From assembly GCA_043733485.1 (NCBI GenBank), contig JAYTGN010000107.1:7284-71283 (forward strand): a stretch of 64,000 nt of DNA. The letters are read 5' to 3'. The notes beneath the pieces are model-generated. The model was not told the origin of the DNA and did not search any database. It saw only the letters and a list, made by a program, of their open reading frames with translations. Source of the DNA: Gemmataceae bacterium. GTDB taxonomy: Bacteria; Planctomycetota; Planctomycetia; Gemmatales; Gemmataceae. How positions within the stretch are numbered: position 1 is the stretch's first letter; every line of letters begins with the position of its first letter. Positions 5,255 through 46,564 of this stretch are shown piece by piece. Both the position numbers and the translations under genes were made by a program.

Positions 5255-6001
5255 ATGTCTTCCGCTCCTCCGTTTCCCCCGCCTCCGCCCCTCCCGCTGG
5301 CGGCAGCGGACCCGCTTCCTCCTTCCCCCTCTAGCGAAGTTCCCACGGCTCTCACTTCGCCGGAGCTTCCCGCGCCGCTCGCGCCGACGCCCGATTCGAC
5401 TCCCCAGGAACCCGAGCTTCCGCCGTTGCCCCCCGTGAAGTTCGACTGGATCGGCGGGCTGCTGAGCTACCTGATCCCCGGGTTGGGGCAGGTCTATCAG
5501 GGCCGAATCGGGAAGGGATTGCTGTTCTTCTTCGGGTTGTACGCGCTCTTCTTTTACGGGATGGGGATGGGGAACTGGTGCAACGTGTGGATGCCGGATG
5601 TCGAGGACATGCCGCCGCTGGAAGTGGCGGGCAACAAGATCGCGGGCGTTCCCAGTTCCCTCTACTATCGACCGCAGTTCCTCGGCCAATTCTGGATCGG
5701 AGTCGCGGCATGGCCCTCGCTGGTGCAGTATCACTACTTCGATAAGACCAAGGAATCCGGACCGCTGTTCGGCACGTTTCAGCGCATGCCGCCGGAAGGT
5801 GCCGCGAACGATCCGCCCGATAAGATCACGCTGAACAAGTTGCAGCGTGAAGGGAACAAGCGTTGGGACTTGGGCTGGGTCTACACGGTGATTGCAGGCG
5901 TGCTGAACCTGTTGGTGATCTACGACGCGCTGGCCGGGCCGATGTTCCGGGAGCCGCCGCCGGGCTGGGGCAAAAAGGAAGACGAACCGTCGACGTGGTG
6001 A
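5255..6001 (+). CDS. Membrane protein with Pro-rich N-terminus (DUF6677-like)
   Basis: Pro-rich tail, then LSYLIPGLGQVYQGRIGKGLLFF and C-terminal GWVYTVIAGVLNLLVIYDAL hydrophobic segments. Start placed at MSSAPP. Confidence 0.75.
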   Translation: MSSAPPFPPPPPLPLAAADPLPPSPSSEVPTALTSPELPAPLAPTPDSTPQEPELPPLPPVKFDWIGGLLSYLIPGLGQVYQGRIGKGLLFFFGLYALFFYGMGMGNWCNVWMPDVEDMPPLEVAGNKIAGVPSSLYYRPQFLGQFWIGVAAWPSLVQYHYFDKTKESGPLFGTFQRMPPEGAANDPPDKITLNKLQREGNKRWDLGWVYTVIAGVLNLLVIYDALAGPMFREPPPGWGKKEDEPSTW

Positions 6002-6046
6002 AGGCGGAAGAAGCGGGCGGGTCGCCCGCGCACCCAGGGAGAGTCG

Positions 6047-6244
6047 ATGACGCTTGCTCTATTGGCTGCGAGTATTTATTGGGATCTGCCCGTGCTGCTG
6101 GTCGTCGTGAGCCTCGTGTATGCGGCCACGCGCCACGACCGCTGGGACAAGATTCTGCGCGAAGGGTTCGGCTGGGGCGTCCGCATCGCGGGGTTCCTCT
6201 TCGCCATCGGCCTCGTGCTCTACCTCATGAGTACGTACATCTAA
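6047..6244 (+). CDS. Small 2-3 TM membrane protein
   Basis: GGAGAG SD upstream; 65 aa almost entirely hydrophobic (LLVVVSLVYAATRHDRW...GFLFAIGLVLY). Confidence 0.7.
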   Translation: MTLALLAASIYWDLPVLLVVVSLVYAATRHDRWDKILREGFGWGVRIAGFLFAIGLVLYLMSTYI

Positions 6245-6250
6245 TCGGAA

Positions 6251-7123
6251 TCAAGCTTCGCCGAACTGCGACGTCTGCACGGTGCCCGCCGGCCATTCCA
6301 GCCGCACGAGCCGCTTGAAGTGGTAATCGCCGCCGATGTTGATTCCCCGAATGCTCCCGAACTGCGATTCGCGCGCGAAATGCGTGTGCCCGCAAAATGC
6401 GAACGGTATGCGTTCGCCCAGCGATTCGAGAAGCCGTTCGAGTTCCACGTTCCCGGAGAAGGCCTCCCAGAGCAGGCCGTCCAATTCCAGCGGTTCCTTC
6501 TTCGGATAGTTCAACCCGCGGAACGGCGGATGGTGGGTGACCACCAGTGCCGCGGGCACCCACTTCAAGGCCCGTTCCAGGTGCTCGGCTAGGGTCGCCA
6601 CCACTTCGCGCGTAAACGTTTCGTCGTCGATGTTCCACCGCACGTAGTTGGCGTCGTTGTGCCGCCCGCGGAGGAAGCGCTTCGTCCGCAGGCGGTCTTG
6701 CCAATCCTCGGCCATTGCGGGCAAGCGGTCGAGGGCCCACGAGTAGTCGTACCAGTTGATGGAGCCGGCCACGGCGAGGCCTACCTCCGGAAGCACGAGC
6801 GGCTCGCGATCGAGGAAGTGAAACCCGTGCTCGGCCGCGACGCGCGGAAGGTACTCGCGATAAACGGCCAGCGAGTCGCCGCGCGGGTCGTCGTAGCGCA
6901 CCCAGATGTCGTGGTTCCCAGGAACGAGGGCTTTTTGGCAGTGAAGCCCGTCGAAGAGTGCGAGGCAGCGTTCGAACTCGTCGCCGGCACCGATGTCGCC
7001 GGCCAGGACGAGCAAGTCGGGAGGGGTTGCGAACAGGTCCGCGATGAGTGCTCGAGTGGCCTCCGTTCCGGACGGATGACGCGTTCCATAGTGGAGGTCG
7101 GCGGTGAGCGCGATGGTGAACAT
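6251..7123 (-). CDS. Calcineurin-like metallophosphoesterase
   Basis: All five motifs present: DLHYG, GDI, GNHD, THH, GHTH. Confidence 0.88.
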   Translation of the reverse strand: MFTIALTADLHYGTRHPSGTEATRALIADLFATPPDLLVLAGDIGAGDEFERCLALFDGLHCQKALVPGNHDIWVRYDDPRGDSLAVYREYLPRVAAEHGFHFLDREPLVLPEVGLAVAGSINWYDYSWALDRLPAMAEDWQDRLRTKRFLRGRHNDANYVRWNIDDETFTREVVATLAEHLERALKWVPAALVVTHHPPFRGLNYPKKEPLELDGLLWEAFSGNVELERLLESLGERIPFAFCGHTHFARESQFGSIRGINIGGDYHFKRLVRLEWPAGTVQTSQFGEA

Positions 7124-34809: not shown

Positions 34810-35325
34810 TCAATTCACTCTACCGAACATCCACAATAGACCAGCGTCAGGGTAAGTAACGATTTCGTCTCCATCCACGAATGATGCAACTGTGATCCAG
34901 TTGTGTATCGGCGATTGCTCCTCAAAGTCGAGGCTCCCTCGGTTCACATTAAGCCGTGGATCATGCTTATCATCCAGGAACTCACGAACCACTTGACCGC
35001 GACGAACCACGATTAATTGCCCGTACGGAACCGAGTCGTTGTATCCTGCGAAAACTAACTCCTCACGGCCGGCAAGTGCTTTCCACATTTCAGCCGAAAT
35101 CGATGCAAGATATCCCGTTTGGTCGTTGAAGACGGTCCATTCACCAGATTCGTGGATGAAGAGCGCCACTCGACTGCGCCACTTTCCATTTGTTGTTGCA
35201 GCGTCAATAGCTTCGTTCCACTTCACTTTCATTGGCGGTCCCAACTCGGCGAGTCCGATGCAATCCGAAAAGCGCTGCATGGCTTCGGCAATGGGTAGCC
35301 GGATTCGAGCGTAGCTCGGGCACAT
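34810..35325 (-). CDS. Low-GC orphan hypothetical protein inserted between the PSD1 and DUF1501 genes
   Basis: Open frame of about 172 codons filling the gap. ATG is 5 bp after the PSD1 stop; many A/T-ending codons. Start uncertain. Confidence 0.7.
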   Translation of the reverse strand: MCPSYARIRLPIAEAMQRFSDCIGLAELGPPMKVKWNEAIDAATTNGKWRSRVALFIHESGEWTVFNDQTGYLASISAEMWKALAGREELVFAGYNDSVPYGQLIVVRRGQVVREFLDDKHDPRLNVNRGSLDFEEQSPIHNWITVASFVDGDEIVTYPDAGLLWMFGRVN

Positions 35326-35330
35326 ACGAT

Positions 35331-37682
35331 TCACTGCCTCGTAATCGTTTCGTGTAGGTTCAGCACCACGCGGCAAACGCTGGTCCACGCGGCAAGTTCG
35401 GCCAGGTTCATGTCGGCGGGCACCTTCACCTCGCCGACCGCGAGTAACTTCTTCGCCTCGTCGGGCTTCTCCGCGTACTCCTTGCGGTGCTTCGCCAACA
35501 TGCCGAGGAGAATCTTCGCCTCAGCGTCCTTCGGCAAACGGCCCGTGGCACGCGCGAACATCGAGGCGATGCGTGCCTCGTCCTGGCCGCCATCGGCAAG
35601 CAACTTCACGGCGAACGCCTTCGCGGCTTCCACGAACTCGGGATCGTTCAAGAGCACGAGTGCCTGCTGCGGGATGTTGGAACGCGGCCGCTCGGCCGTG
35701 CATTCCTCGCGGCTCGTGGCATCGAAGGCAACCATCGCCGGATGCGGGAAGCTCCGCTGCCAGTGGGTGTACATGCCGCGACGATAGGTCTTCTCGCCGG
35801 CGTCCTTCTGCCATTCTCGCGTGGGGAAGTTCAGGGCCGCCCAGTAGCCGAGGGGTTGGTACGGCTTCACGCTTTCGCCGCCAATCTTCGGGCTGAGCAG
35901 ACCGGCGATGGAGAGCGCGTTATCGCGGACGAACTCGGCTTCGAGCCGCCATCGCGATTGCCGGGCGAAGAGCTTGTTGAACGGATCGCGTTCGCGCGAC
36001 ACCGGCGTCTCGACCGACGATTGCTTGTACGTTTGCGACGTGACCATGAGCCGCACGATGTGTTTCACGTCCCATTCATGCCCGACTTCCTTCGGGTGCA
36101 AGCTTTGAAACTCCATTGCCAGCCAATCCAGCAACTCGGGGTGCGTGGGAAGTTGACCCTGGGTGCCTGTTTCCTCCAGCGATCGGGCGATGCCGTAGCC
36201 GAAGAAGAGCTTCCATAGGCGGTTCGCGGCGACGCGAGCCGTAAGCGGGTTCTCGGGCGCGACCGTCCACTTCGCCAAGTCGAGGCGATTGTAGCGACCG
36301 TTCTTTAAGGGAAGCGGCGGCAAAAATCCCGGCGTGTTCGGAAGCATGACTTCGCCGGACTTGTCTTGCCAGTTGCCGCGAGCCAGGATGCGCACCACCC
36401 GCGGCGTCGTCGCCGTTGTGACCAGCGTCTTCGGGATTGTGGCCTCGAAGTCCGTCTTCGCCTTCGTTGCCGCGGCGACCGCATCGCGCTCCCGCTTGAG
36501 GATGGCCTGCGGCAACACCGTCGAACGAACCGCGAGTTGGGTCTGGGCGACTGCGACGGCATCCGTCAGTTCCTTCAATCGCGCGTCCTGCTCGGGCGTA
36601 CTCACGACAAGGCCCGGCTCTCGCCGGCCAATCGGAGACTCCTGTACGTCCGCGAAGAACGCCGCGGTGGCGTAGAAGTCTTTCTGCGTGTACGGGTCGA
36701 ACTTGTGGTTGTGGCACTCGGCACACATGATCGTGCCGCCGAGCCAGACCTGGCCGTAGTTGCGAACGCGATCGGAAGAGTACTTCGCGATGTATTCTTC
36801 CGCCTGGGCCCCGCCTTCCTCCGTCGTTTGAAGCAAGCGGTTGTAGGCGGTGGCCACCCGCTGCGAACGAGTCGGGTTCGGCAACAGATCCCCGGCCAAT
36901 TGTTCGACTGTGAATTGGTCGAACGGCCGATTCGCATTGAACGAGTCGATCACCCACTCGCGGTAGGGTGCGACGTTGATCTCGTTATCGCTGTGGTAGC
37001 CGGCCGAGTCCGCGAAGCGAACGAGGTCGAGCCACCAGACGGCCATTCGTTCGCCGTAGTGCGGCGAGGCCAGCAAGCGGTCCACGAGCTTCTCGTAAGC
37101 ATCGGGTGCTTTGTCGTTCGCGAAAGCCTTCACCTCGCCGGGCGTCGGCGGGAGGCCGGTGAGATCGAGCGCGAGCCGGCGAATGAGCGTGGCGCGATCC
37201 GCCTCCGCACTTGGAGCAACGCCTTCTTGCTTCAAGCGGTACTGGAGGAACGCGTCGATGGGGTGGCGAATGGCGTCCACTTTCGGAACGTCGGGGCGCG
37301 TCAACTTTGCGAACGACCAATGTTCCGAGTACTTTCCACCTTCTGCGATCCACTGCTTGAAGAGGCCAATCTGTTCCGGCGTGAGCGGCGGCTTCTTCGA
37401 CTTCGTCGGCGGCATCACTTCCTCCGCATCTTTCGAGGTGATCCGTGCGAGAAGTTTGCTGGCCTCCGGTTTGCCGGGCTCGATCGCGCCGCTCTTGACT
37501 GCGACATCGCGAAGGTCGAGCCGCAGGTCGGCCTTGCGAGCTTTTTCGTCCGGGCCGTGGCAGGCGTAGCATTGCGTGGCGAGAATCGGGCGGATGTCCC
37601 GGTTGAAGTCCACCGGGGCAGCAATCGTTGCCGAGTCGGTGAGCAGGAAGAGTACACACGCGATCGTGATCGTTTTTCGCAT
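35331..37682 (-). CDS. PSCyt1/PSD1 (DUF1549 + DUF1553) planctomycete cytochrome c domain protein
   Basis: Signal peptide; VDFNRDIRPILATQCYACHGPD; LIRRLALDLTGLPPT; SPHYGERMA; CAECHNHKFDP; NPLTARVAANRLW; PTHPELLDWLA; PQQALVLLN. Confidence 0.93.
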   Translation of the reverse strand: MRKTITIACVLFLLTDSATIAAPVDFNRDIRPILATQCYACHGPDEKARKADLRLDLRDVAVKSGAIEPGKPEASKLLARITSKDAEEVMPPTKSKKPPLTPEQIGLFKQWIAEGGKYSEHWSFAKLTRPDVPKVDAIRHPIDAFLQYRLKQEGVAPSAEADRATLIRRLALDLTGLPPTPGEVKAFANDKAPDAYEKLVDRLLASPHYGERMAVWWLDLVRFADSAGYHSDNEINVAPYREWVIDSFNANRPFDQFTVEQLAGDLLPNPTRSQRVATAYNRLLQTTEEGGAQAEEYIAKYSSDRVRNYGQVWLGGTIMCAECHNHKFDPYTQKDFYATAAFFADVQESPIGRREPGLVVSTPEQDARLKELTDAVAVAQTQLAVRSTVLPQAILKRERDAVAAATKAKTDFEATIPKTLVTTATTPRVVRILARGNWQDKSGEVMLPNTPGFLPPLPLKNGRYNRLDLAKWTVAPENPLTARVAANRLWKLFFGYGIARSLEETGTQGQLPTHPELLDWLAMEFQSLHPKEVGHEWDVKHIVRLMVTSQTYKQSSVETPVSRERDPFNKLFARQSRWRLEAEFVRDNALSIAGLLSPKIGGESVKPYQPLGYWAALNFPTREWQKDAGEKTYRRGMYTHWQRSFPHPAMVAFDATSREECTAERPRSNIPQQALVLLNDPEFVEAAKAFAVKLLADGGQDEARIASMFARATGRLPKDAEAKILLGMLAKHRKEYAEKPDEAKKLLAVGEVKVPADMNLAELAAWTSVCRVVLNLHETITRQ

Positions 37683-37757
37683 GATCGGTACTTGCGGGCG
37701 GGAGCGTGGGGGGTGAGGTAGGAATTGTATCCGAAGTTCGCCCGAGTTCACTTTGAA

Positions 37758-37786
37758 ATGACTGCTCGGTGGCAGGCTCGTAGAAT
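37758..37786 (+). promoter_or_regulatory. sigma70-type promoter candidate for tRNA-Ile2
   Basis: ATGACT-17 bp-TAGAAT, 45 bp upstream of the tRNA. Confidence 0.55.
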
Positions 37787-37831
37787 TGCTCGAATCGAAC
37801 CTCGCTGCCCGCAGCGAACTCGGTGAACGAC

Positions 37832-37904
<73 letters not shown>

Positions 37905-38004
37905 ATGCCATCGTCAGTGACATGATTTGCAGATCAGCGAAGCGCTGGAGCGAACGGGGGTGAGGTACTTCAAATCATTCCCTCATTCCCGCGAATAGAC
38001 TCTC

Positions 38005-38033
38005 TGAAACCCCACACCCGGTTTGCGGGTATC
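38005..38033 (+). promoter_or_regulatory. Possible ECF-type autoregulatory promoter
   Basis: TGAAAC ... GGTATC about 20 bp upstream of the ECF GTG start. Confidence 0.4.
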
Positions 38034-38052
38034 TTCTGGCAGAGGCTCGTTC

Positions 38053-38604
38053 GTGTCCGATGCCGTGCTCGTACGCCGCTGTCTGACCGGGGATTCGGCC
38101 GCGACCCGCGAGCTGGTCGAACGCTTCCAGGGGGATGTGTTCGGCCTCTGCCATCGGCTCCTCGGCCACAGCCAAGATGCTGAGGACGTGTCGCAGGAAG
38201 TGTTCATCCGCATCTTTCGCAGCTTGAAACGCTGGGATGCGACGCGACCGCTAAAGCCCTGGATTCTCGGCATCACGGTGAACCGCTGCCGGACGGCCCT
38301 CGGGAAACGCGCCAAAGGGCCGGAACTCGCGGACTACTTGCACGAGATGCCGGACCACCGGCCCGTGGACGACTCGACGGAATTGACGCGCGAAATTCGA
38401 GCGGCCGTGGATGAACTGCGACCCGATTACCGGGCCGTGTTCATCTTGTTTCACGAGCAGGGGCAGGCTTACGAAGACATTGCCGAGGCCATCGAACGGC
38501 CGGTCGGCACGATCAAGACCTGGCTGCACCGCGCCCGGGTCGAGTTATTGGAACGGCTGCGTTCCAAGGGATTCGTTCCGGACGAGGAAGGTGAATCGAA
38601 ATGA
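38053..38604 (+). CDS. ECF RNA polymerase sigma factor
   Basis: DAEDVSQEVFIRIFRSL, KPWILGITVNRCR; region 4 LRPDYRAVFILFH...YEDIAEAIERPVGTIKTWLHRAR. Confidence 0.9.
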   Translation: MSDAVLVRRCLTGDSAATRELVERFQGDVFGLCHRLLGHSQDAEDVSQEVFIRIFRSLKRWDATRPLKPWILGITVNRCRTALGKRAKGPELADYLHEMPDHRPVDDSTELTREIRAAVDELRPDYRAVFILFHEQGQAYEDIAEAIERPVGTIKTWLHRARVELLERLRSKGFVPDEEGESK

Positions 38605-39296
38605 ACAGCGAACCCGATGCGATCCCGCTGGAGTGCGGCCCGACGCTCGAACGCATCCAGGCCGTTCTGGACCGCATTCATCCCGCCTCGATTCTGGCGG
38701 CCGATGCTCATCCGGCGGTTTGTCCGGCTTGCCGGGCGCGTGTTCGCGCGGCCAAACTGATGCTGAATTCGTTCGCAGAACCGAGGGAAGTCCGGGTGCC
38801 CGCGAGTCTGACGAATGCGATCCTCGCCGGTGTGCGAGCCGATCGGCGAATGCGCTCCCGGCGGCGAGCCTTCGCGCTGGTCGGCGGGTTCGCAGCCGCG
38901 GCAGCGGTCGTCTTCGCGGTCTGGTTCAACCAGCCGAAGCCGGTCGAATTCGCGAAAGGAGTTCCCGTTCAACCAGTCCCACGGGTTCCGCCACCAGTGC
39001 AGCCGATGCGTGTGAACGAGGAGCTGGCCAAGGCCGGCGAGGCACTTCGGGAATCGTCGCGAACGATCACCGAGCCGGCGGCGTCCGCACCCCGCGTCTT
39101 CGCCGCGCTGACGGATAGCCTGTTGAAAGCGCCTGCGGCTCCGGTCGGAATCGATCTCGGGCCAGCCGGCCGGTCCCTCTCCGAGATTCCCGATGCCGCG
39201 CGAAGCGGCCTCGAACCCGTGACCGGCACGGCTCAGAAGGCGTTCAACCGGCTCCTCCGCGACGTGACGTCCATGCAACCGAAGATGAAATCGTGA
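38601..39296 (+). CDS. Putative zinc-binding (ZAS) membrane anti-sigma factor
   Basis: ATGA overlap with the ECF gene; HxxxCxxC motif (HPAVCPAC); single TM (FALVGGFAAAAAVVFAVWF). Confidence 0.75.
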   Translation: MNSEPDAIPLECGPTLERIQAVLDRIHPASILAADAHPAVCPACRARVRAAKLMLNSFAEPREVRVPASLTNAILAGVRADRRMRSRRRAFALVGGFAAAAAVVFAVWFNQPKPVEFAKGVPVQPVPRVPPPVQPMRVNEELAKAGEALRESSRTITEPAASAPRVFAALTDSLLKAPAAPVGIDLGPAGRSLSEIPDAARSGLEPVTGTAQKAFNRLLRDVTSMQPKMKS

Positions 39297-39745
39297 TGGC
39301 AACGCCCCACTATTTCCAGTCTAGCGAGCTGACATGTGGACCGACCTGTCTTCGCATGCTCTTCGCGGGGCTTGGAGCGAATCACGAGGAATCTGCCATC
39401 TCGCAACATTGCGGGATGACTCCGCTAGGATGCACCCTACAAGACTTGATTGTTGGAGCGCAGTCGTTGGGGTTTCAAGCGGCGGTACTTTCCGGATTCG
39501 GTGAACCGGACGCTCTCAAATCCTTGAGGAATGAGACGCCGTTTGTTGCCATGATCGATCTGGCGAGCTTGACGAACGAGGGGCCGATGTTCCAGTGGCA
39601 CTTTGTCGTGCCCCTGAGGTTGGTAAAGGACGAGGTCACGTTTCACGATCCTGCTGATGGTCCCGACCGAGTCGTCCCGTGGGAAGATTTCTTGTCCGCC
39701 TGGGCAACAGCGGGATATCGAGGAGTGCGAGTATGGACCCCGTAA
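39293..39745 (+). CDS. Stand-alone C39-like cysteine peptidase
   Basis: QSSELTCGPTCLRM (Q-x5-C), WHFVV (His), FHDP (Asp). No signal peptide and no ABC domain. Confidence 0.8.
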   Translation: MMATPHYFQSSELTCGPTCLRMLFAGLGANHEESAISQHCGMTPLGCTLQDLIVGAQSLGFQAAVLSGFGEPDALKSLRNETPFVAMIDLASLTNEGPMFQWHFVVPLRLVKDEVTFHDPADGPDRVVPWEDFLSAWATAGYRGVRVWTP

Positions 39746-39975
39746 ACCGCGTTCGCGACTTCCTGCTCGACAACGTCGGCCACATGACCTACCCCGGACG
39801 TGCTTCCTACGAACGCGTCTCGGAGCGCTGGTTCGTGCCGATCTTTTGCCGGACCGAGCGCGGGGCCATCGTCGTCGGCGATATCGAACTCGACAAGCAC
39901 GGGCATGTCGTTTTCGCACCCAGTCGCGAGGAAATGTTGCTCCGCCTCGGTGCCCTGACACCAGCATCCGTGTAG
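39733..39975 (+). CDS. Small hypothetical protein (80 aa)
   Basis: GAGGAG SD; MDPVNRVRDFLLDNVG...WFVPIFC...VGDIELD. Start overlaps the C39 gene end by 13 bp. Confidence 0.7.
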   Translation: MDPVNRVRDFLLDNVGHMTYPGRASYERVSERWFVPIFCRTERGAIVVGDIELDKHGHVVFAPSREEMLLRLGALTPASV

Positions 39976-40001
39976 AGAACAACCCACCCCCTTTGGCCAC
40001 C

Positions 40002-41711
40002 ATGCTGCTCCGCTTCCTCACACATTTGTCCTTTCTGGTTCTCTTCGCCTTCCTGGCGAATTCGGCCTCGGCGGCGTCGCCGCGCGAGGAACTGCTGCGC
40101 GTTGCACCGCCCGATGCCGCGCTGCTCCTGCTCGTGCAAAACGCGAACGACCGCGTTCGGAACATCGAGCAATCGCCATTCGCCAAGTGGTTTCCGCAAT
40201 CCGCACTCGGCAAGCAGGTCCTTTCCGGTGTCGATTTGAAGCAGGCCCAGAGCAGCCTCGCACCCATTTTCGCGGCACTCGAGATCAAGCCCGAGGAACT
40301 GCTGGCGGACGTCTTCGGCGAAGCCGTCGCTTTCGCGTACACGCCAACTCCGAACGACGACCCGAAGGGCGAACGCGCCGTCGTGATCGTTCGCCCCCGT
40401 AAACCCGAGACGCTTGCCAGGCTCGTTGCCAAGTTGAACGAGATTCAGCTTGCCGGCGGCGAGGTGAAAGCCGTACTCAGCCGGCGGCACAACGGCGAGG
40501 AATACTTCGAACGCCAGAAGCCCGGCGGCACTTCGGACTTCTATTGCTTCCGAGGCAGCGTCTTCGCCTTCTCCGGCACCGAGCCGGACATTCAGGCCAT
40601 CATCGACCGCGACAAAGCCGACAAGCCGTCGGTGCTTCCCGCGAAACTGGCCAAGCTCGGCGTCGAGAAATCGTTCGTGGTGGCGCTCATCAACCCGCGA
40701 TCGTTCGATGCCGAGGTGAAGGCGAAGGCCGCGAAGGCGAAAGGTGCCGATCGCGTCCTGCTCGAGCGCTTCCAGGAAATCTGGCTCGCGCTCGATTCGG
40801 CGGCGATCTCCCTCGATCTGGATGCGGGTTTGGAGGCTGGTGTTTCGCTCCAGTTTCAGCCGAACAAGCTGCCGGTCGCCGCGCGAACCTGGCTCACGGG
40901 GGTGCGGCAGAACGCCGCGATCTGGCAGGCGATTCCCGAGAGTGCATTGTTCGCCTTGGCGGGTAACGTTCGCATTGCGGAAGCAATCGAGAGCCTGGGC
41001 TCGCTCGCCGCGGCCGATGGCGCAAACCCGCTCAAGACCGCAGCCGAGCAACTCCTCGGACCCGTGTTCGGCAAGGACAAACTCCCTCAGGTTCTGGCGG
41101 CGCTCGGGCCTCAATGGGCTTTCTGGATCGAACAGCCGAGCGGCAACGGGTTCCTTCCCGAGGGTGTCGCGGTCGTTCAAATCGATTCGACGGGTCCGAA
41201 AGGAAAGGCAGCGGCCCGCGAGATTAGTCGCGCCGTCGGCTTCGGATTCAACACCGCCCGCATCGCTTACAACGCGACCCACACCGACCAGATCGAAATC
41301 GACGAGCTCGACGACGGCGGGGTACTCATCACGTCGCTCGTGAACGAAAAGGGCTTTCCGGCGGGGTTTCGGCCCTCGTATGCGTTCAAGGCCGGCTACT
41401 TGCTCGTGGCCACGTCGCCCGAGGCGATCCAGCGATTCCAGGAACCGAAGCCGGGCATTGCGAAGCCCGAGGCCACGCTGGCCCGCGTTTCTGGGGCTGC
41501 GATCCGAGTGTACCTTCACACGCACCGCGAGAAACTCGCGAAGTTCCTGGCCGCTGCTGGGCAAGGGAACGAAGCCGATGTACTCAAACAGTTCGAACAG
41601 CTCGCCACCGTGCTCGAACTCGTGGATCGCCTCGAGATCGTGACGCGGGGCGACGAAGGCGGCATCCGACTCTCCGCCCGGATCCAATTCGCCAAACCGC
41701 TCCGCAAGTAG
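40002..41711 (+). CDS. Secreted hypothetical protein (DUF3352-like)
   Basis: Signal peptide MLLRFLTHLSFLVLFAFLANSASA; long GC3-biased frame. The track start at 39657 is probably too early. Confidence 0.8.
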   Translation: MLLRFLTHLSFLVLFAFLANSASAASPREELLRVAPPDAALLLLVQNANDRVRNIEQSPFAKWFPQSALGKQVLSGVDLKQAQSSLAPIFAALEIKPEELLADVFGEAVAFAYTPTPNDDPKGERAVVIVRPRKPETLARLVAKLNEIQLAGGEVKAVLSRRHNGEEYFERQKPGGTSDFYCFRGSVFAFSGTEPDIQAIIDRDKADKPSVLPAKLAKLGVEKSFVVALINPRSFDAEVKAKAAKAKGADRVLLERFQEIWLALDSAAISLDLDAGLEAGVSLQFQPNKLPVAARTWLTGVRQNAAIWQAIPESALFALAGNVRIAEAIESLGSLAAADGANPLKTAAEQLLGPVFGKDKLPQVLAALGPQWAFWIEQPSGNGFLPEGVAVVQIDSTGPKGKAAAREISRAVGFGFNTARIAYNATHTDQIEIDELDDGGVLITSLVNEKGFPAGFRPSYAFKAGYLLVATSPEAIQRFQEPKPGIAKPEATLARVSGAAIRVYLHTHREKLAKFLAAAGQGNEADVLKQFEQLATVLELVDRLEIVTRGDEGGIRLSARIQFAKPLRK

Positions 41712-41983
41712 AGGCCTTTTTTCGCTCTCGTGCCGCTCGCAACGGTTGGATCGGGTAAGGGCGCGAAACTTTACCGCCCCTTTCACGGCTCTTTCGCCAA
41801 AGCGTCGGGTATAATAGTTCGGGACTTGAACTTTTCTCACGCCCGGCGAACCCTGGAACGGGCTCGGGCGTCTGAAGTGGTGTTCGGGTCGCTCTCTGCG
41901 TCCGCAAAAAAGTTTCTCTCGGCTGAAAATAGTGCATGGATCGCCTTAACCGTCGGGCTTGCCCGATCGGGAGCGAACACGAT

Positions 41984-43585
41984 ATGAGCCGGACGATTCG
42001 CAATAAGACGCGCCTGACGCTGGACGAAACGGACGCCTCGCCCGGAGAGGAAGTCCGCACCGTCCCGGCAATTTCGGACGAAGTCGGGCTCACCGGCCTC
42101 GACGACATCGCGGATGAATTCGACGAGGCGGAGGAAGACACGGACCTGGAATCGGCCGAGGGCGAAGCGCCCGCCGATGCCGAGGCCGCCCCTGCCGAAG
42201 ACGACTACGCCTCCGGTCCGGACGACGCCCTGGGGCTGTACCTCCGCCAGATGGGCGCGATTCCACTGCTGAATCGCGAGAAGGAACTCGCTCTGGCTCG
42301 GCGGCTCGAACACCACCGCAATCGCTTCCGCAAAGCGGCACTGCTCTGCGTGCGGGTGCTGAATCGCGTCGCGGACAAATTCGAACAGATCGCCGGCGGG
42401 CACACCCCGATCGACCCGAACGTGGACGTGTATTCGTCGCCGGAACTGAAACTCACGCGACTTCAGATTCAAAGCCGCCTCGCGAAGAACCTCTTCACGA
42501 TGAAGCGTTTGCTGGGTCAGGAAGCCGAGGAATTCGCGGCCGGCGTTCGCGACGAGTTCCCCGGATCGGTGAAGTTTTGGCAGCGCGTGCGCCTGCACCG
42601 CATGAACAAGTGCGGCAAACTGGCCTCCGAACTCTCGCCGCGAACCGAACTCCTCGAACGCTGGATCGGCGACCTCGCCGACGTGGCCGACGAGCTCAAG
42701 CACTTGGTGAAGGACCACGCCCTGGCGAGTTGCCCGCACGATCGCGCCAAAACCGCCAAGTCGCTCCGCGAGGCCACCGTCCGCGCCGGCATGACTCCGG
42801 ACGAACTCACCGCCTACCTGAAGGTGGTCCGCAAGCGCCGGATCGGGTACCAGCGCGTTCGCCGCGAGCTCGCCGAAGCCAACCTGCGGCTCGTCGTGAG
42901 CATCGCCAAGAACTACCGCAACCGCGGGCTGCCGTTTGCCGACCTCATTCAAGAAGGCAATCGCGGGCTCATGCGGGCCGTGGACAAGTACGAGTGGCAG
43001 AAGGAATTCAAATTCGGAACCTACGCCACGTGGTGGATTCGCCAGGGCATTACGCGGGCGCTGCACGATCACGCCCGCACGGTTCGCGTGCCGTGCCATC
43101 AGATCAGCATGCTCGCGAAGATGGAGCGGAAGCGGAGCGAGATGTCCGCAGCAACCGGCCGCGAGCCCTCGAACGAGGAACTCGCGTTGGCACTCGGGGC
43201 CAAGCCCGAAGACACCCGCAGCCTACGCGTGGTCGGCCGGCATCCCGTCAGCCTCCACGAACCGATCGGCGGCGACGGCGAACGCGCCCTGGAAGACTTC
43301 CTCCGCGACCACCAGACCGTCAACCCCGGCGAGCAAGCCGATCAACGGCTACTCAAGGAACGGATTCACGAGGTCCTCAAGAGCCTGGCTCCGCGGGAGC
43401 GGGAAGTGATCGAACTCCGCTTCGGACTCGCTGACGGCACGCCGAAGACGCTCGATGAAGTGGCCCGGCTCTATGGCATCACGCGGGAACGTATCCGCCA
43501 GATCGAGGCCCGCGGCATCCTGAAACTGCGGCAACCGACCCGCAGCCACCGCCTCGAAGAGTTCGCCGAGACGGATGAAGTGTGA
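41984..43585 (+). CDS. RpoD/SigA-family sigma-70 factor
   Basis: Acidic N-terminus; region 1.2 DALGLYLRQMGAIPLL; region 2 EANLRLVVSIAKNY...DLIQEGNRGLMRAVDKY...KFGTYATWWIRQGITR; region 4 REREVIELRFGL...TLDEV...TRERIRQIE. Confidence 0.95.
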   Translation: MSRTIRNKTRLTLDETDASPGEEVRTVPAISDEVGLTGLDDIADEFDEAEEDTDLESAEGEAPADAEAAPAEDDYASGPDDALGLYLRQMGAIPLLNREKELALARRLEHHRNRFRKAALLCVRVLNRVADKFEQIAGGHTPIDPNVDVYSSPELKLTRLQIQSRLAKNLFTMKRLLGQEAEEFAAGVRDEFPGSVKFWQRVRLHRMNKCGKLASELSPRTELLERWIGDLADVADELKHLVKDHALASCPHDRAKTAKSLREATVRAGMTPDELTAYLKVVRKRRIGYQRVRRELAEANLRLVVSIAKNYRNRGLPFADLIQEGNRGLMRAVDKYEWQKEFKFGTYATWWIRQGITRALHDHARTVRVPCHQISMLAKMERKRSEMSAATGREPSNEELALALGAKPEDTRSLRVVGRHPVSLHEPIGGDGERALEDFLRDHQTVNPGEQADQRLLKERIHEVLKSLAPREREVIELRFGLADGTPKTLDEVARLYGITRERIRQIEARGILKLRQPTRSHRLEEFAETDEV

Positions 43586-44428: not shown

Positions 44429-46564
44429 TTACGGGTTACGGTCTGAAAGGGGAATTACGGTCGCGTTGCGGATCGCGACTATCGATCGTCTCGCGATGAT
44501 CCCGAACGACAATTTCGGCGACCATTCCGGCAGTATTTTCTCGGAGCCCGGCGCTTGGGCTTCAAGGTCTTTCTTTGCAAGCTCGTATTGCGTTCGAATC
44601 TGTTCGACGTTCCAGCGAGCGAGTGTCACCATTCTATCCGGATCGTTCTCATTCAGTTTGTCCGCCCGCCACTGGAGGTGTACTTCGTTGGGTGAGAATT
44701 CGGCGATGATCGGTCGCCAAATGCTCGGCTCCGGGCCATTCGCGCCTTGTCGAATCGACGAAGTGAACTTCAGCGATCCCGTCTTATATGCTGGCAATTG
44801 AAAGACGGGTATTTGGGCATCAGGATCTTGAACGAACCCCGAGCGGGTCACCTGAACGCCTCGTGTTCGCGGAGCATTCAGATCCTCCTTGGGCATCTCG
44901 AAATCCTTAAACGTAGCGATGAATAACGAGTGGACTGCCTTTCCTCCCGAGGTGGTTCCTTGGGCGTGACCGAAGTAGAACCCGATTACGTCCGTATCGA
45001 TTGCTCCAGTCGGAGCAGCGAACGCTGCACGATTGTGTTGGAGTTCGAGGCGCACTCGGTAATGTTCGAGACCCAGGTTTGGTATCAGTTCGAGCATCGA
45101 CATATCAAACGCACGAAAACTGCAGGTTCCATTCGGTTCCGTCTGGAGTACGCTTTGTTCCAGCCAAAACCGGTGATACTTCGGCAGACCCGTCTCGCCA
45201 ATCAGTGTTACTGTCTTCCCAGCGGCTAAATCCGCCTTTACGTTGGCGAGATGCGCGGCGATCGGGTCCGGAGATGGGTTGGACTTGGGGGCCGGAGCCA
45301 TCGCGAGGCCCACGATGAAAATCGTCGCGACGATGAGCACCACTCCCGTCCACGCCGCTGCCGGCTTGCGATTCCGACCCAACCAGCGTTGAGCCCTTCG
45401 GCGAGGCGAGAGCAGCGGTGCCTCTTGTTCCGCTCCCGCAAGGAATCGGCCCAAATCGGCGGAGAAAGAGTTCGCGGAAGCATAACGCGCTGCGGGATTC
45501 TTCTCCAACGCCTTCATCACGATGGCTTCGAGTCCGGGTGGGACCTCGGGTCGCAGGCTCCGCAATCGCGGCGGCTCGTCGTTCAACACCTTCTTGAGAA
45601 TCTCGTCGTTCGACTCGCCCGTGAACGGTGGCCGTCCCGCGAGCAAGTGGAACAGTGTGGCCCCGAGGCCGTAAATGTCCGTGGTCGCCGTCAGTTCCTT
45701 GGAGCGACCGGCTGCCGCCTCCGGCGACATATAACACGGCGTGCCCAAGGGGCCGGTCTTTGTCAGGTCGGCACCGCGATCTAAACGCTTCGCGAGCCCG
45801 AAGTCCGAGACGCGCGGCGTGTAGGCGAGTGGAGTTTCCGCCGAATCCGAGGCGTTCTCGAAGAGCAGAATGTTGCTCGGTTTAATGTCGCGGTGAATGA
45901 TGTCCTTGGCGTGGGCGGCCGCGATGGCGTTCGCCGCACACTGCATTAATCGCGCGGCCTCGAACGGCGTCGGCAAGCGGTCCGGCTTCGTCAGGTTCGA
46001 TAGCGTGCCGCCATTCGCGAAATCCATCGTGAAATACGGCTCGCGCCAGGTCGTTTTCACGTCCAGTACGTTGATGATGTTGTCGTGCTTCAGTTCGGCC
46101 AAGGCTCGCACTTCGATTAAAAAGCGGTCGAAGGCCGTGCCGCTGGTCGGGGAGTGCAGGAACTTGATGGCGACATTGCGTTCGGTGGCGTGCTCGTAGG
46201 CCAAGTAGACGGTGCCCATGCCGCCGGAGCCGAGGTTGCGGAGCAGGTCGTAGCCGGGGGGCGCTTCGGGCAAGTACTCCGCATCGAGCGTAAATTGTTT
46301 GGTGTCTGCGTCGGGCTGGGGCGTGGCCGTGAGATTGGCGTCGCTATGCGTGGTTTGAAACTGGACGGCGTAGGGATGATCGGCCGGCGCGATTCGCACC
46401 GGTTGCGCGGTGATCGTACCCGGTCGCTCGGCCACGGCGGACGACGCGGACGTGGAACCTGGAGTGCCACCCGTGCGGAGGCAAACTTCGCACACGTCGC
46501 TCTTGGAATCGAGAGCGATTGGACGACTGCATCGCGAGCAAGAGGAGTAACCGGGGGAGGACAC
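44429..46564 (-). CDS. Hanks-type Ser/Thr kinase with N-terminal CxxC...CxxC, TM and C-terminal beta-sandwich-like domain
   Basis: CSRC...CEVC; LGSGGMGTVY, VAIK, HRDIKPSN, DFG, GTPCYMSPE; TM WTGVVLIVATIFIVGLAM. Confidence 0.93.
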   Translation of the reverse strand: MSSPGYSSCSRCSRPIALDSKSDVCEVCLRTGGTPGSTSASSAVAERPGTITAQPVRIAPADHPYAVQFQTTHSDANLTATPQPDADTKQFTLDAEYLPEAPPGYDLLRNLGSGGMGTVYLAYEHATERNVAIKFLHSPTSGTAFDRFLIEVRALAELKHDNIINVLDVKTTWREPYFTMDFANGGTLSNLTKPDRLPTPFEAARLMQCAANAIAAAHAKDIIHRDIKPSNILLFENASDSAETPLAYTPRVSDFGLAKRLDRGADLTKTGPLGTPCYMSPEAAAGRSKELTATTDIYGLGATLFHLLAGRPPFTGESNDEILKKVLNDEPPRLRSLRPEVPPGLEAIVMKALEKNPAARYASANSFSADLGRFLAGAEQEAPLLSPRRRAQRWLGRNRKPAAAWTGVVLIVATIFIVGLAMAPAPKSNPSPDPIAAHLANVKADLAAGKTVTLIGETGLPKYHRFWLEQSVLQTEPNGTCSFRAFDMSMLELIPNLGLEHYRVRLELQHNRAAFAAPTGAIDTDVIGFYFGHAQGTTSGGKAVHSLFIATFKDFEMPKEDLNAPRTRGVQVTRSGFVQDPDAQIPVFQLPAYKTGSLKFTSSIRQGANGPEPSIWRPIIAEFSPNEVHLQWRADKLNENDPDRMVTLARWNVEQIRTQYELAKKDLEAQAPGSEKILPEWSPKLSFGIIARRSIVAIRNATVIPLSDRNP

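Follow-up and report, generated by a model that had tools for sequence, protein, structure and literature searches.

A stand-alone C39 cysteine peptidase and a small companion protein in Gemmataceae and distant lineages

Cysteine peptidases of family C39 are known from two settings: they form the leader-cleaving domains in exporters and, as was recognised more recently, act as delivered antibacterial toxins whose substrates are GyrB and ParE. The toxins Cpe1, of a type VI secretion system (T6SS), and StbD-CT, of a contact-dependent inhibition (CDI) system, are C39-type peptidases accompanied by small immunity proteins, Cpi1 and StbI, which bind beside the active site and block substrate docking, and both enzymes cleave a Gly-Gly site in GyrB and in ParE (PMC12136450; bioRxiv 10.64898/2026.05.07.723447). 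In its published description StbI consists of two helices and an antiparallel sheet of five strands (bioRxiv 10.64898/2026.05.07.723447). The subject of this report is a pair of overlapping genes, one for a stand-alone C39 peptidase and one for a small protein of 80 residues, which lies within a run of five genes in 64,000 nucleotides of a Gemmataceae bacterium (assembly GCA_043733485.1, contig JAYTGN010000107.1, positions 7,284 to 71,283), a stretch referred to here in its entirety as the window. The general idea of a small cognate partner for a cysteine peptidase is already known; this particular pair is undescribed in the literature searched, in agreement with the first-pass annotation of the sequence, which knew of no matching system.

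The peptidase resembles Cpe1 and StbD-CT in that it has a Cys-His-Asp triad in a C39/ComA-like domain of some 140-150 aa and that a small gene comes directly after its own, and the structural model of the small protein has the same inventory of elements as StbI, five strands and two helices. It differs from the two toxins in that no PAAR, Rhs or CdiA delivery domain is present, the peptidase being the entire protein, and the small protein differs from Cpi1 and StbI in having no detectable sequence or Foldseek similarity to immunity proteins. The described toxin and immunity pairs are also polymorphic, whereas the pair considered here is conserved and largely vertically inherited. With the peptidase domains of PCAT1, ComA and LahT150 (MEROPS C39, PF03412), which provide the best match in both sequence and structure, the window peptidase shares the same Gln/Cys/His/Asp set, but it is unfused to a transporter, has no exporter or double-glycine precursor nearby and is paired with a structured small protein.

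Other two-gene systems offer more distant parallels. In staphopain-staphostatin operons the gene for a secreted papain-like protease is followed by that for a cytoplasmic inhibitor, which guards against misplaced protease activity. The gene order, a protease and then a small specific binding protein (as predicted here), is the same in the window, as is co-transcription, which is probable here; however, the window protease is cytoplasmic and belongs to family C39, and its small partner has neither the barrel fold of staphostatin nor any Foldseek match and persists in orphan form. Type II toxin-antitoxin (TA) systems share with the pair two short overlapping genes, variable neighbourhoods and a putative toxin that is often inactivated while its partner is kept. 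They differ from it in that the pair has no DNA-binding antitoxin domain, no match to a TA or defence family and, in the window, no convincing promoter that belongs to it, is strongly conserved, and was not found on the plasmids or phages searched.

Co-occurrence of the peptidase and its small partner

The C39 gene and the small gene are adjacent and overlapping in every lineage inspected, with an overlap of 8-23 nt throughout and of 13 nt in Gemmataceae. The small gene comes after the C39 gene without exception, its ATG lying 10-13 nt inside it, in the six GTDB genome loci reached by way of the peptidase (L001-L006; loci are numbered with the prefix L), in L008 and in a JGI contig of 34.7 kb, and no sigma factor, anti-sigma factor or homologue of the 569-aa protein encoded last in the window's five-gene run adjoins the pair at these loci. 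The genes that do flank the pair vary from one Gemmataceae locus to the next. In five distant lineages (loci L063-L073, with a locus GC of 33%-64%) the small protein shares only about 25-38% identity with that of the window, and each small gene is preceded by an overlapping (8-23 nt) gene for a stand-alone C39 protein of 130-157 aa in which the catalytic residues are retained. Among the loci inspected the small gene was always immediately 3' of a C39 gene or C39 remnant, and the C39 gene was not seen without the small gene. The identities of the two proteins co-vary pairwise (r = 0.63 within Gemmataceae and 0.94 overall), with means of 69% and 70%, and no fusion of the two was found among hundreds of homologues. 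This strict coupling, the enzyme-first gene order, the co-divergence and the absence of fusions therefore argue for a specific protein-protein pair. Judged by comparison of these loci, the two genes are an autonomous and ancient unit, and they travel independently of the extracytoplasmic function (ECF) sigma factor beside which they are found in the window, as the Gemmataceae loci without an ECF gene and the five distant lineages attest.

Outside the Planctomycetes (L063, L068, L069/L070 and L071-L073) the pair lies amid genes of sugar or polysaccharide type, a setting that may be meaningful or may reflect mere variable islands. The neighbours there include a PIG-L deacetylase with an alcohol dehydrogenase (ADH) and an aminotransferase; GT4 glycosyltransferases with a MurJ-like flippase; PfkB, HAD, FGE-sulfatase and fucose pyrophosphorylase genes; and CapK with a GFO/IDH/MocA oxidoreductase.

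The peptidase, to judge from its sequence and its structural model, is a genuine and probably active member of family C39 that is unusual in being stand-alone and cytoplasmic. It matches PF03412 in Pfam with an E-value of 1.9e-12 and 47.6 bits against a cut-off of 22, and there is little or no variation at Gln9, Cys15, His103 and Asp119 across 113 homologues, which bears out the earlier description of a full triad in a protein with no transporter or signal peptide. No N-terminal hydrophobic stretch, signal peptide or ABC/transporter domain is present, and the protein begins 14 residues ahead of the catalytic Cys, which leaves no room for a trafficking or delivery region. Its 273 cluster-level homologues, 60-75% identical and nearly all of 148-150 aa (148-161 aa overall), derive from soil and sediment metagenomes and from Gemmataceae metagenome-assembled genomes (MAGs). 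The top Foldseek matches of the AlphaFold2 model (pLDDT 93.7) are the peptidase domains of PCAT1, ComA and LahT150, with a TM score of about 0.8 and E-values down to 7e-9; at the level of sequence the best match to the exporter peptidase domains is 24% identical, and a profile search of the PDB finds PCAT1 at 1e-6. Lower in the Foldseek results, with TM scores of 0.69-0.71 and E-values of 3e-6 to 1e-5, stand the StbD-CT toxin (8ssk, 8ssm) and, as 9l5u, a toxin/immunity pair of papain-like type.

That the closest structures are leader-cleaving domains, and that the non-planctomycete pairs have biosynthetic neighbourhoods (sugar or polysaccharide), would suit a leader peptidase acting on unlinked double-glycine peptides, in the cytoplasmic maturation of peptides that are made on ribosomes and modified after translation (RiPPs), bacteriocins or signal peptides, the small protein serving as chaperone or as recognition element. 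Such a role is highly improbable, given that none of the loci has a conserved precursor, modifying enzyme or exporter beside the pair and that the small protein is unlike known recognition elements in Pfam and Foldseek comparisons. No ABC gene or GG-leader open reading frame (ORF) is present in the window or in related loci, and when the window was scanned in all six frames with a strict regular expression no double-glycine-leader ORF came up, as the first-pass annotation had also observed for precursors near the gene.

The small protein has 223 homologues of 60-75% identity in a word-index search. Both proteins thus have over 220 cluster-level homologues, which puts the pair well outside what chance would produce. 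In an alignment of 121 sequences positions 6-69 are almost invariant, and the final 7-20 residues vary, with an abundance of Ala, Ser, Thr and Gly. The AlphaFold2 model (pLDDT 89.8) comprises a helix at 3-14, five strands and a helix at 65-74, with the N-terminal helix packed into the fold (pLDDT 94). Nothing was matched in Pfam, NCBIfam, PADLOC or PHROGs, and neither Pfam nor Foldseek gave a match of helix-turn-helix (HTH), ribbon-helix-helix (RHH) or AbrB type. Sequence searches of the PDB with the single protein and with the family profile produced chance-level matches only (H-NS, RNase J), and Foldseek searches of the model against the PDB and BFVD gave none below an E-value of 0.007, with TM scores of at most 0.5. 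When 1.84 billion representatives were searched exhaustively with a profile, just 90 relatives were recovered, some of them of about 100-125 aa with an additional C-terminal element. The family has no described relatives and is missing from the curated libraries searched.

Two candidate cleavage sites in the small protein were considered and rejected. A ubiquitin-like or leader-type precursor cut at the C-terminal 'RLGA' is not borne out by the alignment, in which Gly73 is present in 82 of the 121 sequences (68%), the tail is variable and the motif is missing from the distant families. An N-terminal leader-like helix ending at Gly16-His17 has a spacing that misfits the -4/-7/-12 hydrophobic pattern, in addition to being packed into the fold.

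Decay of the peptidase gene and persistence of its partner

The state of the C39 gene was classified at 57 Gemmataceae-type loci, 47 of them informative. The gene is intact in about 20 of the 47 and not intact in about 27, an asymmetry that is inflated in appearance because most of the classified loci were found through the small gene. Six loci have no trace of the peptidase beyond its last few codons, and in about 11 the 5' part with the catalytic Cys is gone, with differing breakpoints; at L009 the truncated gene adjoins a transposase fragment. An internal deletion at L015 fuses residue 16 to residue 122. In-frame stops occur in five loci, as TAG at codon 126 (L002 and L017), TGA at codon 60 (L003), TGA at codon 21 (L005) and one at L057, and the TAG common to L002 and L017 is present in two independent assemblies. 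Frameshifts were found in four loci, some of which assembly errors may account for, and at L004 (and in protein P0115) a small deletion replaces the last C39 residues with a 35-aa extension, altering the 3' end. In all there are at least 14 distinct deletion breakpoints, and every deletion spares the last C39 codons, which hold the start region of the small gene. Of 55 cases, 54 have the small gene complete; the sole exception is L057, where both genes are damaged. Among the seven loci found by way of the peptidase itself, C39 is damaged in 4-5 and the small gene is intact in all seven.

Some details of individual loci may be added. The deletion at L004 lies at about 6420-6440 of that locus. 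At L006 a frameshift near codon 129 joins the N-terminal part of C39 to the small protein in one ORF of 225 codons (6001-6678), and P0096 is a 129-aa C39 protein that lacks the first 21 residues.

The reading that we tentatively put first is that the pair comprises an autonomous peptidase and a cognate partner that binds and neutralises it in the manner of an antidote, a mechanism suggested by analogy with the known C39-type toxins. The small protein would be made in step with the peptidase through translational coupling, and would bind it tightly and thereby gate or neutralise it, as Cpi1 and StbI act on C39-type toxins; the contact would probably be in the hydrophobic groove that receives the leader, or at an exosite. 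Free peptidase would cleave a Gly-Gly-type site of some cytoplasmic protein at a cost to the cell, and if so, this cost and its neutralisation by the partner would explain why the peptidase is often deleted or inactivated and the small gene is not. The small protein probably has an additional role of its own, since orphan copies remain conserved.

Several observations weigh against this reading, beginning with the bias in how the classified loci were found. A pure antidote should decay after the loss of its toxin, so the conservation of the orphans counts against it: L012, L028 and L032 share one old C39 deletion and have since diverged to a dS of 0.5-0.7, yet their small genes have dN/dS values of 0.13-0.16, indicative of purifying selection, and the per-site conservation of orphan small proteins equals that of paired ones, with no sites that relax after C39 loss. 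(For the C-terminal C39 remnants dS is saturated and dN/dS uninformative.) Both proteins are unusually conserved and their inheritance is apparently vertical in Gemmataceae, unlike that of immunity genes engaged in an arms race or of mobile toxin-antitoxin cassettes. The small protein was absent from 72,556 plasmids and 50,697 phage records as well as from PADLOC and PHROGs, and it has no similarity to Cpi1, StbI or other solved proteins, although 8ssm and 9l5u were in the library. Finally, the small domain is also found N-terminal to a GGDEF cyclase and to membrane DUF928/TPR or TPR proteins, and in tandem (P0326, P0312, P0315, P0329, P0272), and these fusions to GGDEF and membrane/TPR proteins suggest, on the basis of domain architecture, that it is a signalling or docking domain.

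Some of the same observations lend themselves to a proteolytic switch, in which the small protein or domain is a functional regulator or docking element and C39 is the dedicated modifier that trims, activates or removes it; once a lineage had lost the peptidase, its small protein would then stay fixed in a single state. Purifying selection on orphan genes as conserved as paired ones, the near-complete conservation of positions 6-69, the occurrence of homologous domains at the N-terminus of other proteins and in tandem, and the failure to find C39 without the small gene would all agree with such a switch. We nevertheless regard it as doubtful, because a modifier needed for function would not vanish from more than half of the loci, and because the small protein offers no conserved Gly-Gly, Gly-Ala or Gly-Ser site: Gly73 is not universal and is followed by a variable tail, the only Gly that is invariant across the family lies at a helix end, and the N-terminal helix is part of the fold rather than a free leader. 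The broader proposal that the small protein founds a new family of cytoplasmic regulatory domains with a dedicated C39 peptidase, a proteolytic signalling switch of several phyla that is here plugged into an ECF stress operon, is possible to a similarly limited degree.

The first-pass annotation had suggested a toxin-antitoxin-like or defence cassette inserted into the operon. The part of this suggestion that stands is the autonomous two-gene unit within an operon, with a peptidase that decays as the toxic member of a toxin/antidote pair might; the TA or defence label is not established, in view of the absence of PADLOC, PHROGs, plasmid and phage matches and of a DNA-binding fold, the largely vertical inheritance and the purifying selection on orphans. 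A mobile type II TA or anti-phage defence cassette recently inserted in the operon is, in our estimation, unlikely. It would agree with a pair of small genes that overlap and whose neighbourhoods vary, with a distribution that is patchy and rare beyond Gemmataceae (the 90 representatives among 1.84 billion), with the frequent decay of the putative toxin, with the transposase fragment beside the truncated C39 of L009, and with the composition of the C39 gene, whose GC content is 0.567 and whose GC content at third codon positions (GC3) is 0.627, compared with a GC3 of 0.74-0.80 in its neighbours, just as the earlier description of its codons as more AT-rich had it. Low GC3 is, however, also found in the pair of other genomes and is therefore no mark of recent import. 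Partial synteny within subclades indicates vertical descent, and the pair in L006, a separate genus-level lineage, is 63-64% identical to that of the window, much as the ECF orthologue there is (63%). The plasmid, phage, PADLOC and PHROGs searches were empty for the small protein, and in these defence, phage-protein, plasmid and phage collections C39 matched only ABC exporters. No DNA-binding antitoxin domain was found, and within the window the pair lacks a convincing promoter for itself.

The pair within the ECF operon of the window species

In the window the pair occupies the third and fourth positions of one tight run on the + strand, which encodes an ECF sigma factor, a zinc-associated anti-sigma factor (ZAS), the C39 peptidase, the 80-aa protein and a secreted protein of 569 aa (Table 1). 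All five ORFs are present, the first-pass description holds at each point checked and the junctions are as first described, the first four genes overlapping and the last following after a short gap: 4 nt (ATGA) are shared by the sigma and anti-sigma genes, 1 nt (TGATG) by the anti-sigma and C39 genes if the latter begins at its ATG or 4 nt if it begins at a GTG, and 13 nt by the C39 and small genes, and 26 nt separate the small gene from the 569-aa gene. For C39 the best start is ATG 39296, which gives the length seen in homologues, and GTG 39293 is possible too. The ORF of the sigma factor opens at an alternative start, TTG 38023, and the gene calls of conspecific contigs give 183 aa.

Table 1. 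Features of the five-gene run and the adjacent tRNA gene, in window coordinates
Feature	Coordinates	Strand	Remarks
tRNA-Met	37832..37904	+	ARAGORN; just upstream of operon; context only
ECF-type sigma factor	38053..38604	+	183 aa from GTG 38053; host operon, outside conserved pair
ZAS-type anti-sigma	38601..39296	+	231 aa; HPAVCPAC motif, one transmembrane segment, Pro-rich outer part
Stand-alone cytoplasmic C39 cysteine peptidase	39296..39745	+	149 aa; Gln9, Cys15, His103, Asp119; PF03412
Small partner protein	39733..39975	+	80 aa; helix / five strands / helix; 223 homologues
Secreted 569-aa protein, family unassigned	40002..41711	+	signal peptide; belongs to host operon in window species only

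The first two genes have the features of an ECF/ZAS pair. The sigma factor has regions 2 and 4 (Sigma70_r2 at 8e-17 and r4_2 at 3e-15 in Pfam, with a TIGR02937 match in NCBIfam), and the anti-sigma factor, whose NCBIfam match to an anti-sigma family is weak (2e-6), carries the H-x3-C-x2-C motif and a single hydrophobic membrane segment as read from its sequence. The 569-aa protein begins with MLLRFLTHLSFLVLFAFLANSASA and has no match in Pfam, NCBIfam or PHROGs. PADLOC was also without a useful match for it, as were Pfam, PADLOC and PHROGs for the anti-sigma factor. No terminator-like site was found within 37700-42100, and the window contains no convincing promoter-like site belonging to the pair, whose gene starts overlap the stops upstream. 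Because it sits between the anti-sigma and secreted-protein genes, the pair is probably transcribed with the ECF operon in the window species.

The five-gene arrangement is limited to contigs 98-99% identical to the window (L058-L061) and one relative at about 90% (L062), and it is only in these that the 569-aa gene lies next to the pair. In L006 the ECF orthologue is followed by an anti-sigma gene whose product is 30% identical to that of the window. These two genes make up an operon of their own, divergent from the pair and some 5 kb upstream of it on the opposite strand; a PSD1-family gene separates them from the pair. A single inversion of the L006 layout would yield the arrangement of the window, and such a step may have taken place. 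Since the pair occurs elsewhere without an ECF gene and the five-gene order is confined to L058-L062, its position in the ECF operon is, on this comparison of gene orders, recent and lineage-specific, and the pair is not a conserved component of the ECF/ZAS operon.

An operon that unites a protease with a sigma factor and its anti-sigma factor has a precedent in CalpL-CalpT-CalpS, in which the Lon-type protease CalpL cuts the anti-sigma factor CalpT. The window protease likewise shares an operon with an ECF sigma factor and an anti-sigma factor; unlike the Calp system, however, the association is found in one species-level lineage only, the protease is of another family and it has no sensor domain. 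The first-pass annotation had proposed a role of this kind, in which the peptidase is dedicated to cutting the ZAS anti-sigma factor, or the small protein, and so frees the ECF sigma factor. As a general function of the pair this is unsupported, because the ECF association is confined to one lineage, all other lineages having the pair without any ECF gene and L006 having its ECF and anti-sigma orthologues in an operon apart. As a function peculiar to the window lineage it is very unlikely, though co-option in that species is conceivable, since the pair is probably expressed there together with the ECF regulon. The stop/start overlap of the C39 gene with the anti-sigma gene, the run without a terminator and the retention of the five-gene order in strains at 98-99% and about 90% identity would accord with it, but the sole Gly-Gly of the anti-sigma factor lies within its membrane segment, and the divergence among conspecifics points in another direction. 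Compared with L058-L061, C39 has 10 nt changes of which 5 alter an amino acid, the anti-sigma gene has 11 with 1 amino-acid change, and the RpoD-like sigma gene has 20-23 with 0-1, the flanking sigma, anti-sigma and RpoD-like proteins being 99-100% identical to their conspecific counterparts. Because C39 has 5 amino-acid changes against 0-1 in the sigma and anti-sigma proteins, this pattern suggests relaxed constraint on the peptidase in the window species, rather than the part of a key regulator.

The surroundings of the run differ among close relatives. Placed between the PSD1-family gene and the ECF operon, the tRNA-Met gene serves as an integration site in a conspecific strain: L061 has a 1.88-kb insert (188-2067) with two integrase-domain ORFs after window position 37875, within the tRNA-Met gene, flanked by a 45-bp repeat of window positions 37831-37875, the 5' half of that gene. 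Homology between the window and L058 runs as far as the PSD1 stop codon and no further (boundary 35335). A low-GC stretch of the window (0.50-0.53) carries a 192-aa ORF on the - strand (34810-35388) with no Pfam match, and L058 has DUF1501 and DUF29 genes in its place. Within the run, 13 nt (39987-39999) are missing from the conspecific L059 and L060, so that in these contigs 13 nt, against 26 nt in the window, separate the small gene from the 569-aa gene. Downstream of the run are a primary-type sigma-70 factor of 549 aa with regions 1.2, 2, 3 and 4 (41936-43585) and, on the - strand, a Ser/Thr protein kinase of 711 aa (44429-46564); large Ser/Thr kinases are near the pair in other genomes too (e.g., L008) and are abundant in Planctomycetes.

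Implications for C39 peptidases and their annotation

For annotation, the peptidase is not to be named a bacteriocin exporter, and the presence of a C39 gene in an ECF operon is not evidence of a general mechanism of sigma-factor control. The asymmetry between a peptidase that is often dead and a partner that is kept provides a clear and cheap entry point for experiments. A stand-alone cytoplasmic C39 peptidase tied to a conserved small partner across distant lineages represents a third, undescribed setting for the family, in addition to the exporter domains and the delivered toxins. Should the partner prove to be an inhibitor, the two proteins would represent a new family of toxin/antidote pair that is based on a protease; should it prove instead to be a substrate or docking domain, they would constitute a new module of regulated proteolysis, and a function would be given to a domain that is also carried by diguanylate cyclases and membrane sensors.

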